DNA from: a virus
Lineage: Duplodnaviria; Heunggongvirae; Uroviricota; Caudoviricetes
IMG/VR virus record: IMGVR_UViG_3300045988_034764
Reading direction: 5' to 3' (one strand)
Length of the DNA: 26,494 nucleotides
A program made the translations under genes and the position numbers. Positions 1 to 25,680 of the stretch are shown here, in pieces. Positions within the stretch are counted from its first letter, which is position 1. The number at the start of each line of letters is the position of its first letter. The notes below the pieces were generated by a model. It worked only from the letters and a program-made list of their open reading frames with translations. It searched no databases and had not been told where the DNA came from.

Positions 1-1
1 C

Positions 2-157
2 ATAATGCACGAAAACGGTAAATACTGGGTTCTAAACGATAAAGGAGTGTACTACGTAATGATTTCTGGGTTTACCCATGCTAAAGCTGATAGCGCATAC
101 GCTAGCTTATATTTAGCGATAGCCCGCTGCGATTATCTAGCGAGTAGAGATGTATAA
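2..157 (+). CDS. 3' end of a plus-strand gene running in from beyond the window start (partial, hypothetical)
   Basis: Frame open from position 2 with no stop until TAA at 155-157; followed directly by a hairpin terminator. Confidence 0.25.
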   Translation: MMHENGKYWVLNDKGVYYVMISGFTHAKADSAYASLYLAIARCDYLASRDV

Positions 158-160
158 GCT

Positions 161-186
161 AAGGCCCCTTTCGGGGCCTTTTATCA
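161..186. terminator. Intrinsic terminator hairpin between convergent genes
   Basis: AAGGCCCC-TTTC-GGGGCCTT stem-loop followed by TTATCATT; lies between a plus-strand ORF end and the minus-strand gene ending at 184. Confidence 0.5.
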
Positions 187-1688: not shown

Positions 1689-1732
1689 AAGCCCTCCTGT
1701 AGTATCGACAGTGTACCGCATAAAAATAATAA

Positions 1733-1764
1733 TTGCAGACACCAATATAATAGGGTACTATTCA
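1733..1764 (+). promoter_or_regulatory. sigma70-like promoter with embedded operator motif, driving the transporter/DpdA cassette
   Basis: TTGCAG (1733-1738), 17-bp spacer, TACTAT (1756-1761); internal TATAAT (1746-1751); core TATAATAGGGTACTATTCA is one copy of the recurrent 19-bp motif. Confidence 0.45.
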
Positions 1765-1788
1765 GTTAACTTAAACAGGAGACGAAAA

Positions 1789-1947
1789 ATGAAATTAGCA
1801 AAAAGAATTACCGTAAATACTAATTTAAGTTCGAAAAACGGAGACAAACGTAAGTTCCGCCGTAAAATGCGCCAGATTGTTAAACTAGACTACATTTTTG
1901 AAGAAACGATTGCACTAGCCGCAAACGCTGCCCGTAACTGGGGGTGA
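1789..1947 (+). CDS. Small basic protein (52 aa), first gene of the modification cassette
   Basis: In-frame ATG with AGGAG SD 7 nt upstream; lysine/arginine-rich; stop 4 nt before next gene. Confidence 0.45.
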   Translation: MKLAKRITVNTNLSSKNGDKRKFRRKMRQIVKLDYIFEETIALAANAARNWG

Positions 1948-1951
1948 TAAG

Positions 1952-2416
1952 ATGATGTATGCAATTTACGTAGCGGCGATATGCGCCGCTAACTTTTCGG
2001 TAACTGTGTTTGGTCCGTGGGCGACACCGGTAAACGCCTTTCTACTTATTGGGCTTGATTTCGTAATAAGAGATAAGTTGCACGAGAGGATTGGTGTACA
2101 AAAAATATTCATACTGATACTAGTAACTGGCATTATAAGTTTCTCCATAAACCCGGCAACCGGCAAGATTGCTATGGCAAGCGTTGTTGCCTTCGCTTTT
2201 GCAGCCGCCATAGATGCCGTTGTCTACCAGGCACTGATCAATAAAAAGTGGTTGGTTAAGTCAAACGTAAGTAATACAGCGGCCTCGGCGGTGGACTCTT
2301 TTATTTTCCCACTAATAGCTTTCGGGGCCTTCATGCCGCTAGTCGTACTGGGCCAATTCGTGGCTAAGGTTTTTGGCGGAGCTTTATGGTCGTTCTTGCT
2401 GAGGAAAATTAAATGA
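1952..2416 (+). CDS. Polytopic membrane protein, YhhQ / COG1738-like (queuosine-precursor transporter family)
   Basis: 154 aa with about 4 hydrophobic helices; motifs recalled from memory as YhhQ-like (D-x-x-x-R, NVS-x-T...FIFPLIAF); GGGGGTGA SD; ATGA overlap with DpdA-like gene. Confidence 0.45.
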   Translation: MMYAIYVAAICAANFSVTVFGPWATPVNAFLLIGLDFVIRDKLHERIGVQKIFILILVTGIISFSINPATGKIAMASVVAFAFAAAIDAVVYQALINKKWLVKSNVSNTAASAVDSFIFPLIAFGAFMPLVVLGQFVAKVFGGALWSFLLRKIK

Positions 2417-3147
2417 CAGTGCATTACCACGGAGGCCCTATTTGGGGTGGGGATGAGCTTATAGAAGCATTGTACCGAGGTGGTGGTGCTCTGGTATCAT
2501 ACGCCCGCCCCGATCAAATACGAAAGATAGCCGCCACGAGATGTAAATTAGTGTTGGACAACGGAGCTTTTTCGACGTGGAAGAAAGCACCGGACAACAT
2601 AGACTGGAGCGCCCACTGGGCAGGATATTATGATTTTGTCGGAGAGTGGTTCAGTCGTATTGAGTGGTTCATAATACCGGACGTTATAGAGGGCACGGAG
2701 GAAGAGAACGACGCATTAATAGAAACTGTCCCCGATTGGTTAAGGTCTAAGGCGGTCCCGGTGTGGCACAGCGATGAAAGTATAAGAAGACTGGTAAAAC
2801 TGTGCCGTGGGTTCAATCGGGTAGCGATAGGTTGCTGCGGACCGCACAGGGCCATACGGTCTAAGTCATGGGGGAAAAGAATGGACCAGGCATTTAATGC
2901 GGTTTATAGAAACAGGAAATTGGATGTAAAACTCCACGGCCTTAGAATGCTGGATGGGCGGGCCTTGAGCCGCTACCCTTTCGACAGCGCTGACAGCACA
3001 AACGTAGCTATAAATGTGCCGAAAACTAAGGCAAGACTACCTGACATAACGGACAAACTGCATCGAACTGCCATAATGAGGCATACCATAGAGATGGTTA
3101 AACCCCCTACAGTAGAGGAATGGCTACTTAAAACTAAGGCCCCATAA
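2413..3147 (+). CDS. dpdA: DpdA-like tRNA-guanine transglycosylase paralog (7-deazaguanine DNA transglycosylase candidate)
   Basis: 244 aa; TGT-like motifs LDNGAF (compare DSGGFQ) and FDSADST (compare FDCVxPT); no zinc-binding subdomain, as in short phage DpdA; coupled to the YhhQ-like gene. Confidence 0.5.
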   Translation: MTVHYHGGPIWGGDELIEALYRGGGALVSYARPDQIRKIAATRCKLVLDNGAFSTWKKAPDNIDWSAHWAGYYDFVGEWFSRIEWFIIPDVIEGTEEENDALIETVPDWLRSKAVPVWHSDESIRRLVKLCRGFNRVAIGCCGPHRAIRSKSWGKRMDQAFNAVYRNRKLDVKLHGLRMLDGRALSRYPFDSADSTNVAINVPKTKARLPDITDKLHRTAIMRHTIEMVKPPTVEEWLLKTKAP

Positions 3148-3159
3148 CGGGGCCTTTTT
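3136..3159. terminator. Intrinsic terminator at the end of the modification cassette (possibly bidirectional)
   Basis: AAGGCCCC-ATAAC-GGGGCCTT hairpin spanning the DpdA stop codon, followed by TTTTT; portal gene ends at 3162 on the other strand. Confidence 0.55.
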
Positions 3160-3161
3160 CG

Positions 3162-4631
3162 CTACTCCTGTTGCTGTGCCGACTGCGGAATCTCCCCCTC
3201 CACCTGAGTAACAGCACCTAACGGCAGTGGTGCATCCTCGATTGCGTTCTGAATGTCCTCGTCCGTCCAGTCAGTTACGCCAGCCTTACGCAATGCTGCA
3301 TAGTAAGCAGTGGCGGGCAGCAAACCGGCATTAATGTCTGCCATCCACTGCGCACGGTCATGGGCGGTCATCGGTTGCAAGAAGAACTCCATATTCAGCT
3401 TGAACTCAATCTCTGTGCCTTCACGCAGCCCTAGCATCGCAGCCACCCAGCGCAACGCATCGGTGTACGCCATGCTTACGTTCCGCGCGATTGTCGCCAT
3501 AACTGACGTATCCGCACCGCGTTGCAGTCTGGCCGATTCAGCGGTGATTTGCTGCGTCGGGGTGATAAGCTGCGCACCAATCTGGATAGCCTGATTCTCT
3601 TTATCCAGCATGTTCTGCTTAGCGAGGTTGTTCTCCCCCGCCTGAACCAGAAACGCATTGCCGCCGTAACCAATGTTGTGGCCTGAACGCGACCCCATAC
3701 GCACGCCGTGAGGGTTGGCTTCTTTCCACTGTTCCATGCTCATGTTCTCGCCCGGCGCAATGAACAAAGTAGGCTGGCCTACCACGAAGCTGGACTCTTC
3801 ATTGTCTGCGCTGTTACGGAAATGCCCGATATTAAGCTCAGCCAACGGCAGCAAAGGTGCATCGTCAATTGTTGCATCGTTGTTGCTCGCACCAATGAAC
3901 GTAAATGGGATTTTACCGCGCAACTGTTCGCCCAGTTCCGGGAATATTTCGATTACTTCGTCCTGAGCGCCGCCTTCGGCATCGAAGCGGTAAATGCGCT
4001 GGCGGTAGCGACCGTCAATCAGGTCAAGGACGCGGTATTGCTCGCCAAACTTGGTTTCGAACTCCGCACCCGGTTCTGAGTATTCCCATGCCTCACGCAG
4101 CACGACCATAGTCACACGGTTCACTGAACCTACGCGTGTCAGTCGCCAGTTGATGATGTTCTCTGCGGTATAGAATGCGATGACCGGGTTTAATAACCCT
4201 GCGTTCTGTTCGGCTGCCGTCGCGGCGGCGGTCTCTGGGGCATCAACCAGCAACCCGCCACGACCTACCGAGTCAATCTCCATCAGCGTATCCTGCGCGT
4301 GCTGCCACAGCCCGACACCGGAACCGTCAGCATTACGTAGCAGGTACTCCATCTCAGGCGGAATAATCTGTTCGGGGTCTTTGCGCATGACGCTACCGAC
4401 CATCCCCGCCAGGGTACGTTTAGTGAAGTTGTAGCAGATAGCGCCGTTCTCGTATTCTTCCTGGCGCTGCGCTGCGTAGGTTGGGTCTGGCTCGTTCTTC
4501 CCGACGTTGCGAAGATAGCGGATAAGGTCGCCTTCCAGCGCGTGTCGCACCTTCTGCCATTTATCGAAGTGATGCAGCCATTCCCGGTGTTTTGTCTTAA
4601 CACCCTGATTCTGACCGTTCATAGTTAACAT
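3162..4631 (-). CDS. Portal protein
   Basis: 489 aa ORF between terminase large subunit and head morphogenesis gene; AAGAGGA SD; size and position typical of a portal. Confidence 0.6.
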   Translation of the reverse strand: MLTMNGQNQGVKTKHREWLHHFDKWQKVRHALEGDLIRYLRNVGKNEPDPTYAAQRQEEYENGAICYNFTKRTLAGMVGSVMRKDPEQIIPPEMEYLLRNADGSGVGLWQHAQDTLMEIDSVGRGGLLVDAPETAAATAAEQNAGLLNPVIAFYTAENIINWRLTRVGSVNRVTMVVLREAWEYSEPGAEFETKFGEQYRVLDLIDGRYRQRIYRFDAEGGAQDEVIEIFPELGEQLRGKIPFTFIGASNNDATIDDAPLLPLAELNIGHFRNSADNEESSFVVGQPTLFIAPGENMSMEQWKEANPHGVRMGSRSGHNIGYGGNAFLVQAGENNLAKQNMLDKENQAIQIGAQLITPTQQITAESARLQRGADTSVMATIARNVSMAYTDALRWVAAMLGLREGTEIEFKLNMEFFLQPMTAHDRAQWMADINAGLLPATAYYAALRKAGVTDWTDEDIQNAIEDAPLPLGAVTQVEGEIPQSAQQQE

Positions 4632-4675: not shown

Positions 4676-4900
4676 TTATGCCTTCTTAATCCAATTATTG
4701 TAAACGCCAAGCCCCCAGCTATAGGCGTAGAAAAGGCACAGCACAAGAATACCCCATTGCTGGTTTACTATCGCGCTATAAATCCAGAAAGGCTGCCCAG
4801 CAATTCCAAACAAACAAGCGAATCTCTTCCACTTCTGGTTGGATTGCTGGGTAAGGAAGATGGCTATTACGCCAGTGAAAGCTATAGCTAGTTGGTCCAT
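4676..4900 (-). CDS. Small integral membrane protein (hypothetical)
   Basis: 74 aa, 2-3 hydrophobic helices; between terminase and portal; TGAGGA SD. Confidence 0.5.
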   Translation of the reverse strand: MDQLAIAFTGVIAIFLTQQSNQKWKRFACLFGIAGQPFWIYSAIVNQQWGILVLCLFYAYSWGLGVYNNWIKKA

Positions 4901-9210: not shown

Positions 9211-9460
9211 GCTTATGTCCTCCGTATGACAGCCACGCCTGACGAATCTGACGCAGCGCAACTAATGTGATTAATGTCTCAGGCAGCGTAGGCGACATGC
9301 TGCCCTGTAGCAGGTGGATACATCCGGCGGCGCAGACGATAGCGGTCAGGATATAGAGCACCCGACCAAATAGTCCGTCATCCACGCTGGGATGATATAC
9401 ATTAAACAGCGATGTGCCCCCTATTGCCAGCATACCGCCGAACCAGAATAACTCATTCAT
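9188..9460 (-). CDS. Lysis-associated membrane protein (holin/antiholin-like, 2 TM)
   Basis: Start moved to ATG with GAGGAGG SD; two hydrophobic helices; overlaps endolysin start by 23 nt. Confidence 0.5.
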   Translation of the reverse strand: MNELFWFGGMLAIGGTSLFNVYHPSVDDGLFGRVLYILTAIVCAAGCIHLLQGSMSPTLPETLITLVALRQIRQAWLSYGGHKRVSKHFR

Positions 9461-12972: not shown

Positions 12973-13006
12973 TGAATAGTATCCTATTATATTGGGGTGT
13001 GCAAGA
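12973..13006 (-). promoter_or_regulatory. sigma70-like promoter with operator motif (copy B)
   Basis: On minus strand TTGCAC (12999-13004), 17-bp spacer, TACTAT (12976-12981); core TGAATAGTATCCTATTATA at 12973-12991. Confidence 0.45.
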
Positions 13007-25654: not shown

Positions 25655-25680
25655 AAGGCCCCGTTTGGGGCCTTAGTTTT
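25655..25680. terminator. Intrinsic terminator between convergent genes
   Basis: AAGGCCCC-GTTT-GGGGCCTT hairpin followed by AGTTTT. Confidence 0.5.

Follow-up and report, generated by a model that had tools for sequence, protein, structure and literature searches.

A mobile three-gene phage cassette encoding a DpdA-like transglycosylase and a VUT-type transporter: a candidate salvage-type DNA modification module in a Kagunavirus-like coliphage

Can a phage equip itself for 7-deazaguanine DNA modification with an enzyme and a transporter, leaving the synthesis of the modified base to others? This question is raised by positions 1733–3159 of IMG/VR record IMGVR_UViG_3300045988_034764, a viral DNA of 26,494 nucleotides (nt) whose whole length is called the window here and which is part of a Kagunavirus-like (Guernseyvirinae) siphophage genome. 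An earlier note on this DNA had read the segment as a moron-like cassette that combines a small basic protein, a YhhQ-like transporter and a DpdA-like DNA transglycosylase. We find that it is a self-contained, horizontally mobile transcription unit made up of a promoter core, a shared 5′ untranslated region (5′-UTR), three coupled genes and a terminator, and on balance we favor, with some reserve, the interpretation that it is a salvage-type 7-deazaguanine DNA modification module in a Kagunavirus-like coliphage. An ENA metagenome scaffold of 26 kb is identical to the window and one of 44,652 bp is 99.6% identical to it; Escherichia coli/Shigella phages such as CR01, NTEC3 and phiSD1 are 87–90% identical over 66–75% of its length. 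The three genes are as follows, with coordinates and strand as the earlier note had given them and as verified by a check of the open reading frames (ORFs).

1789–1947, plus strand: gene for the small basic protein, 52 amino acids (aa), an ORF with its ATG at 1789
1952–2416, plus strand: VUT gene, 154 aa, an ORF with its ATG at 1952
2413–3147, plus strand: dpdA-like gene, 244 aa, an ORF with its ATG at 2413

These genes are tightly packed: the ATG of the VUT gene sits 4 nt past the stop of the 52-aa ORF, and the ATG of the dpdA-like gene overlaps the VUT stop codon as ATGA (2413–2416). They are real genes and not chance ORFs, because they have homologues with E values of 3e-161 (DpdA-like), 4e-83 (VUT) and 4e-25 (52-aa protein). 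The GC content of the coding part of the cassette is 46.8%, versus 54.7% in the two flanking genes.

The 244-aa protein matches phrog_887 ('queuine tRNA-ribosyltransferase') with an E value of 2.9e-84, and the same family is matched by the DpdA proteins of phage CAjan (8.2e-96) and phage 7-11 (7.1e-74). Alignment of a profile of 37 homologues with CAjan DpdA using hhalign gave 92.4% probability (E 5e-7, 155 columns), and the motifs of the window family and of CAjan pair as LDNGAFS/LDSGAFS, VWH/CFH, KLHG/KLHA and FDSADS/YSCDSS. The closest relatives from isolates are found in PEAT2 (66% identity), HK106 (64%) and Salmonella phage 7-11 (60%). Both of the TGT-like motifs to which the earlier note had drawn attention are present (LDNGAF at residues 48–53, FDSADST at 190–196), and within them D49, N50, A52, D194 and S195 are invariant in 41 homologues. 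The same 41 sequences, down to 44% identity, share 31 invariant positions overall; these include D49, D90, H119, G140, H175 and D194, each located at the C-terminal end of a successive β-strand in the AlphaFold model, which is where TIM-barrel active sites lie. The model itself is a (β/α)8 barrel (pLDDT 90.6) of the type found in TGT, though Foldseek gave no separation from other TIM barrels; its ordered matches have Cap10 second, bacterial TGT fourth, archaeosine TGT sixth and QTRT2 fourteenth.

The active site of bacterial DpdA uses Asp95, four positions ahead of Phe99, as general acid/base, Asp130 for base recognition and Asp256 as nucleophile (PMC10164549). The 244-aa protein has three candidate aspartates, D49 (in LDNGAF), D90 (in IPDV) and D194 (in FDSADS), of which D49 and D194 align with the CAjan motifs. 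The spacing D49-x-G-x-F53 equals that of Asp95…Phe99, and the D194-S motif also fits; this suggests that D49, D90 and D194 are equivalent to D95, D130 and D256 of the bacterial enzyme. The protein contains no CxCxxC zinc motif, and none of its four cysteines is invariant. Because CAjan DpdA likewise has no zinc motif, its absence here is no argument against membership in the phage DpdA family; rather, the missing motif and the length of 244 aa, versus 413 aa for bacterial DpdA, identify a phage-type and not a bacterial-type DpdA, in keeping with the earlier description of a short protein that lacks the zinc subdomain. On these sequence features and the predicted fold, we assign the protein as a putative minimal TIM-barrel transglycosylase of the phage DpdA family, in the 'singleton' subgroup of gamma-proteobacterial phages.

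The neighboring 154-aa protein had been likened to COG1738/YhhQ transporters, and the proposed profile check bears this out: Pfam PF02592 (Vut_1, COG1738) matches residues 67–141 with 38.1 bits, above the cut-off of 27.2 (E 2.5e-9), and all 120 homologues listed for the protein carry this domain, with 59 positions invariant among the VUT homologues. The protein also matches phrog_4899 (E 4e-37), the PHROG that contains CAjan gp41 ('putative preQ0 transporter'), with which it shares 28% identity. Its model has six long helices (pLDDT 83.7) and hydrophobic stretches extend over most of the chain, a predicted polytopic inner-membrane architecture; in a fold comparison made against viral models only (BFVD), the best matches are viral VUT-like proteins (TM 0.61–0.69). 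Characterized COG1738/QPTR members transport preQ0/preQ1 (E. coli) or queuine (Chlamydia) (PMC11130926). By sequence, the 154-aa protein belongs to a short, divergent phage subgroup of VUT/QPTR and is not an equivalog of E. coli YhhQ, and we predict that it imports a 7-deazaguanine base. The pairing with DpdA recurs: in 19 of 80 IMG/VR loci, VUT lies directly upstream of dpdA or overlaps it, and this involves two DpdA clades that are only ~41% identical to each other.

If the cassette modifies DNA, where does the base come from? The earlier note had seen no folE, queD, queE or queC in the window. We likewise found no match to the FolE, QueD, QueE, QueC or QueF families in the window, and the result extends to ~41.5 kb of the 44.65-kb source scaffold. 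Judging by synteny with a related phage contig (L006), the rest of the scaffold should hold the remainder of the tape-measure gene, chaperone genes and an accessory block on the plus strand that is free of preQ0-family Pfam matches. Phage DpdA enzymes can use host pools, because 9g dpdA alone inserts dPreQ0 into plasmids (PMC6884629) and because folE and queC mutants of CAjan still modify their DNA, at a ~12-fold lower level (PMC7544227).

To define the unit in which these genes travel, its ends and its two neighbors have to be considered together.

1705–1733, plus strand: sigma-70-like promoter TCGACA-17-AATAAT, alternative or additional (10/12 match in a consensus scan)
1733–1764, plus strand: conserved 32-nt promoter core TTGCAGACACCAATATAATAGGGTACTATTCA, with a -35-like TTGCAG, a 17-nt spacer and a -10-like TACTAT
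1765–1788, plus strand: 5′-UTR, with the Shine–Dalgarno sequence AGGAG at 1777–1781, 7 nt 5′ of the ATG (read from the sequence)
3136–3156, with a T-run to 3159, plus strand: intrinsic-terminator-like hairpin AAGGCCCC/GGGGCCTT, with an 8-bp stem, a 5-nt loop and T5
645–1688/1745, minus strand: head-morphogenesis gene (Phage_Mu_F, phrog_241)
3162–4631, minus strand: portal gene (DUF4055, phrog_145)

The cassette thus sits antisense between the portal and head-morphogenesis genes, as had been noted; both neighbors are on the minus strand and both have Pfam and PHROG matches. Window positions 1733–3158 correspond to positions 9321–10746 of L006 with 93.3% identity, and the homology starts exactly at 1733 and ends at 3158, so that the transferred unit is bounded by its own promoter and terminator: the promoter core (1733–1764) is its 5′ boundary and the hairpin (3136–3159) its 3′ boundary. 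In L006 the cassette occupies a different slot, between a 128-aa gene and a Hoc-like decoration gene, and a further contig, L091, carries it in the same slot as L006. In the Salmonella-associated relatives L013–L015, the same gene order is found in a third slot, which lies between the head-module genes for proteins of 233 and 128 aa. The cassette is therefore found in three slots across Guernseyvirinae-like genomes.

The proteins of these copies are not equally similar to those of the window. In L013–L015 and L091, VUT is 71–73%, the small protein 53–58% and DpdA ~42% identical to its counterpart here, and L012 and L017 likewise pair a VUT of ~71–73% identity with a DpdA of ~41–43%; the small protein (~53–58%) is present in L013–L015 (2840–4244), L091 and L012 and not in L017. 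The gap between VUT and DpdA identities in these genomes suggests that the module exchanged its DpdA allele or recombined internally.

Close relatives show that the junction is a variable site. The flanks of the cassette are ~90% identical in 176 isolate records, and none of the 176 contains the cassette. At the same junction, K1ind1 is empty (a 36-bp gap), phiWAO78-1 and CR01 have a small hypothetical gene preceded by the same promoter element, and an amidase gene is found in the Jerseyvirus dunkel; this presence or absence at a fixed junction among collinear relatives agrees with the earlier designation as moron-like. Among 5,426 complete E. coli genomes there is no close DNA match to the cassette, and 11 of them contain a 67%-identical dpdA segment that belongs to HK106-like prophages.

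Further accessory segments were noticed in these phages. A second antisense mini-cassette is located one slot over, at window positions 1–183 and continuing upstream (L008 7516–7770). It shares the 32-nt promoter core and the 5′-UTR with the dpdA cassette, contains a 57-aa ORF (phrog_20712, whose 3′ part is window 5–157) and has a nearly identical terminator hairpin at 161–180; its slot is the one that holds the dpdA cassette in L006. In L006 (471–3101), another copy of the promoter core precedes four plus-strand genes (108, 376, 162 and 184 aa) between the tail-assembly-chaperone and tail-tube genes. The 162-aa product has HAD_PNKP/acid-phosphatase matches, and a role of the block in repairing RNA or DNA ends is possible; at least the last gene of the block is also present in the phage of the window (L008 1–275). 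A 74-aa hydrophobic protein encoded at 4676–4900 on the minus strand (phrog_22312, 'membrane protein', E 5e-6) separates the portal and large-terminase genes, which adjoin in L006, and its gene is thus another variable accessory gene.

The regulatory ends of the cassette belong to repeated families. The earlier note had placed a promoter at 1733–1761, and this site stands as the conserved core of a repeated element, although not as a strong consensus match: TTGCAG-17-TACTAT agrees with only 7 of 12 sigma-70 consensus positions and is absent from the listing of the consensus scan. The 32-nt core is invariant across seven copies in four phages, each located upstream of a transcription unit and with flanks that vary; conservation and position suggest that it acts as a promoter. 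The better consensus match TCGACA-17-AATAAT (1705–1733) falls in a slot-specific flank common to phiWAO78-1 and CR01. Downstream of the core, the 5′-UTR segment TAACTTAAACAGGAGA recurs upstream of the L013 cassette and of the slot-A ORF. A copy of the core with three mismatches is found at 12973–13004 on the minus strand, pointing leftward at the head of the divergent early region.

At the other end, the hairpin predicted to be a terminator is present at 3136–3159 with a fold energy of −17.7 kcal/mol (z = −2.5) and a T-run to 3159. Its loop contains the dpdA stop codon (3145–3147), and L013 is arranged alike. The window contains three copies of the motif AAGGCCCC-N-GGGGCCTT, versus 0 expected, and the third copy, with an N4 spacer, lies at 25655–25674. 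We propose that the promoter core drives and the hairpin stops transcription of the cassette; both appear to be standard regulatory elements of this phage that provide homology for cassette exchange. The hairpin (3136–3156) also scores as terminator-like on the minus strand. Late transcripts of the head operon would have to cross the 1.4-kb antisense cassette and this minus-strand hairpin, and thus the insertion may affect, or be silenced by, late transcription.

The earlier note had left the 52-aa protein as an unassigned third component, and a genuine component it proves to be. It has 13 Lys/Arg residues and a pI of 11, with no family assignment in Pfam or NCBIfam. Homologues with 53–59% identity and 20 invariant residues occur beside VUT and DpdA in five other phage backbones: Flyfo siphovirus Tbat1_6, Salmonella-associated Guernseyvirinae-like contigs, a 61-kb phage contig and two IMG/VR contigs. 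When ~100 loci were searched with a hidden Markov model of the protein, copies were found only adjoining VUT and DpdA, and in one locus (L025) the small gene lies downstream of dpdA and not upstream. The protein is rare: an exhaustive HMMER search returned two representatives in 1.84 billion proteins, and the homology search gave two clusters and one isolate phage, with no fusion or annotated relative that clarifies its role. It is a conserved, real gene product, and we propose that it is a nucleic-acid-binding accessory or a regulator. A ribbon-helix-helix fold was considered. The lead consists of a weak full-length match to MJ0366 (E 0.6); a comparison with an approximate CopG sequence by hhalign gave 1%, and Pfam gave nothing.

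These results have mechanistic implications. Gene structure, family membership, fold, conserved residues, the lack of preQ0 synthesis genes and the mobility of the unit come directly from the analysis; from them we infer the substrate, DNA as the target, the extent of modification, the timing of expression and the role of the small protein. Transcription of the unit would start from the promoter element and would probably be early, given that a copy of this element also stands at the head of the divergent early region (12973–13004). The short VUT/QPTR protein would then increase the supply of a free 7-deazaguanine base within the cell (preQ0, preQ1 or a related compound), on top of the preQ0/preQ1 that E. 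coli produces for its queuosine. After replication, the DpdA-type enzyme would swap guanine for this base in double-stranded phage DNA by the double-displacement chemistry of TGT, with D49 as the putative general acid/base, D90 recognizing the base and D194 as the nucleophile. The modified DNA would be partly shielded from restriction or other DNA-targeting defenses. The basic 52-aa protein may bind nucleic acid and assist DpdA, or it may regulate the unit.

Several observations weigh against this interpretation. The profile check proposed for 2413–3147 against TGT and DpdA came out on both sides: the matches to phrog_887 and to CAjan DpdA by hhalign were found, but neither the 244-aa protein nor any of the 41 family members matches Pfam TGT (PF01702) at E values up to 10, the protein has no NCBIfam match, phmmer and profile searches of PDB sequences returned no match, and hhalign of the family with E. 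coli Tgt gave 0.6%. Only phage DpdA and the fold comparison, and not Pfam TGT, connect this distant subgroup with canonical TGT. The transporter misses the equivalog cut-offs of NCBIfam (25.8 versus 50.95 bits for TIGR00697, 21.4 versus 252 bits for PRK11212) and has 154 aa versus ~220 aa for YhhQ. E. coli already has YhhQ and de novo synthesis of preQ0/preQ1, and thus it is not evident what a second transporter would add; moreover, deletion of yhhQ in CAjan has no effect on modification (PMC7544227). The DNA of phage 7-11, the one close relative that has been tested and whose DpdA is 60% identical to the one here, contains just 50 dADG per 10^6 nt, ~0.02% of G (PMC6884629). Finally, Hutinet et al. 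placed the singleton DpdAs in their own similarity cluster and considered that they may have diverged in function (PMC6884629).

Among the alternatives raised by these points, an unlikely one treats the cassette as a passenger, mostly neutral or in decay, whose DpdA-like protein is inactive or nearly so in this host, with the genes persisting through easy cassette shuffling. The trace modification of phage 7-11, the dispensability of yhhQ in CAjan and the absence of the cassette from all 176 isolate genomes with the same flanks would all fit a passenger. However, the three ORFs are intact in every copy examined, the gene overlap and translational coupling are conserved, and strong constraint is seen in each protein: the 31 invariant DpdA positions include the putative catalytic aspartates, VUT has its 59, and the small protein keeps 20 at 53–59% identity.

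Just as unlikely, in the opposite direction, is a stronger form of the salvage module. Here the three genes would be a complete salvaging hypermodification module, in which the 52-aa protein is an obligatory partner that targets DpdA to DNA or activates it (a functional counterpart of DpdB of the bacterial system) and VUT imports a base of which the host makes little, for example queuine or a different 7-deazaguanine from the environment. If true, the chemistry of the phage DNA would be tied to the metabolites available in the gut community, and the nearly unmodified DNA of phage 7-11, which is without both partners, would be explained.

Slightly less probable is that the DpdA-like enzyme has diverged and, with the base supplied by the transporter, targets RNA (tRNA of the host or phage) or a protein instead of phage DNA, for translational tuning or interference with host defense; a precedent for a protein target is the TGT-like Cap10, which acts on a CD-NTase. 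The separate, possibly diverged cluster of the singleton DpdAs described by Hutinet et al. and the almost unmodified DNA of phage 7-11 point in this direction. Against it, both the PHROG assignment and hhalign group the enzyme with the DNA-modifying DpdA of CAjan, no QueC/Cap9-like partner occurs in the window or the covered part of the scaffold, and E. coli already has Tgt. The least probable alternative, that VUT imports an unrelated small molecule or is a membrane effector (for example for superinfection exclusion) whose pairing with DpdA is not about precursor supply, draws on the Pfam name 'putative vitamin uptake transporter', on Pfam and NCBIfam matches that are confined to the central part of each profile, with both equivalog cut-offs missed, on a length ~70 residues short of YhhQ and on the 'unknown function' label of phrog_4899, but it is opposed by a close and translationally coupled pairing that recurs with two divergent DpdA clades, by the position of the CAjan counterpart inside a preQ0 synthesis cluster and by the fact that every characterized COG1738 member carries a queuosine precursor.

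Returning to the salvage-type DNA modification module, what is new about it? The combination of phage DpdA with a precursor transporter is already known from other phages: RefSeq annotates the two PEAT2 genes as 'VUT family protein' and 'queuine tRNA-ribosyltransferase', and this type of cassette is thus not new. New here are the Kagunavirus-type host phage, the autonomous promoter-to-terminator unit in three slots and the conserved 52-aa partner; our literature search found no paper linking DpdA with Kagunavirus. The singleton DpdAs are the largest group of phage DpdAs, with 76 phages in a 2019 survey (PMC6884629), and the cassette offers a compact object with which to test their function (1.4 kb, its own regulatory ends and natural relatives that are cassette-free), in which two accessory genes point to precursor salvage. 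If the module is active, restriction-evading DNA chemistry could be gained in one recombination event and without biosynthetic genes, with host or environment supplying the precursor. Such DNA would, in turn, be open to attack by modification-dependent defenses such as GrwAB (PMC12137116), which is relevant to the choice of Kagunavirus-type therapeutic phages. The distribution over three slots is also a clean example of accessory-gene shuffling via repeated promoter and terminator sequences.

Comparison with known systems places the cassette more precisely. The best-characterized counterpart is the cluster of Escherichia phage CAjan (Seuratvirus), which comprises dpdA (gp35), the yhhQ-like gp41, folE, queD, queE and queC, and in which deletion of dpdA abolishes dPreQ0 in the phage DNA (PMC7544227). 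Both proteins fall in the same PHROGs as those of CAjan (phrog_887 and phrog_4899) and the transporter is equally short (159 aa in CAjan versus 154 aa here), whereas the DpdA here is 62 residues shorter. In contrast to the phage described here, in which no synthesis genes were found, CAjan makes its own preQ0, which replaces ~25–32% of G; also unlike CAjan, the genes here are grouped, together with the 52-aa gene, in an autonomous 1.4-kb cassette within the head-gene module. Closer in enzyme sequence is gp032 of Salmonella phage 7-11, the type example of a 'DpdA-only' phage (PMC6884629), which is 60% identical over 94% of the length. The two share the lack of preQ0 genes and membership in the same gamma-proteobacterial singleton cluster, but phage 7-11 has no detectable VUT or small-protein gene adjoining dpdA.

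The pairing itself is matched most closely elsewhere. Pectobacterium phage PEAT2 gp18–gp19 have the same order and overlap, with VUT 72% and DpdA 66% identical, in a different backbone, near replication genes and without the small gene. Flyfo siphovirus Tbat1_6 gp34–gp36 have the three genes in the order seen here, the small protein being represented by a 53-aa homologue (55% identity), again in another backbone; there the cassette adjoins the terminase, and DpdA is only 42% identical. We found no experimental characterization of the VUT and transglycosylase pairs of PEAT2 and Tbat1_6 in the literature searched. Bacterial DpdA (Salmonella Montevideo, PDB 7UI4) is more distant: it shares the D-x-G-x-F motif and the C-terminal D-S motif, in which the acid/base and nucleophile aspartates are expected, but identity is 14%, and its 413 aa include four insertions and a CxCx2Cx22H zinc site that its family conserves, all absent here. 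It also requires DpdB and ATP, and the cassette contains no ATPase.

In genetic architecture, the nearest parallels are the promoter-early stem-loop (PeSL) cassettes of T4-type phages and the morons of lambdoid phages, in which small accessory genes are bracketed by a repeated promoter and a stem-loop terminator; such units vary between close relatives, and their repeated regulatory sequences serve as homology for shuffling. The cassette described here is alike in placing accessory genes between a repeated promoter and a stem-loop terminator and in its variability among relatives. It differs in phage group and in sequences, in lying antisense inside a head-gene operon, and in that the identical payload is documented here in three alternative slots.

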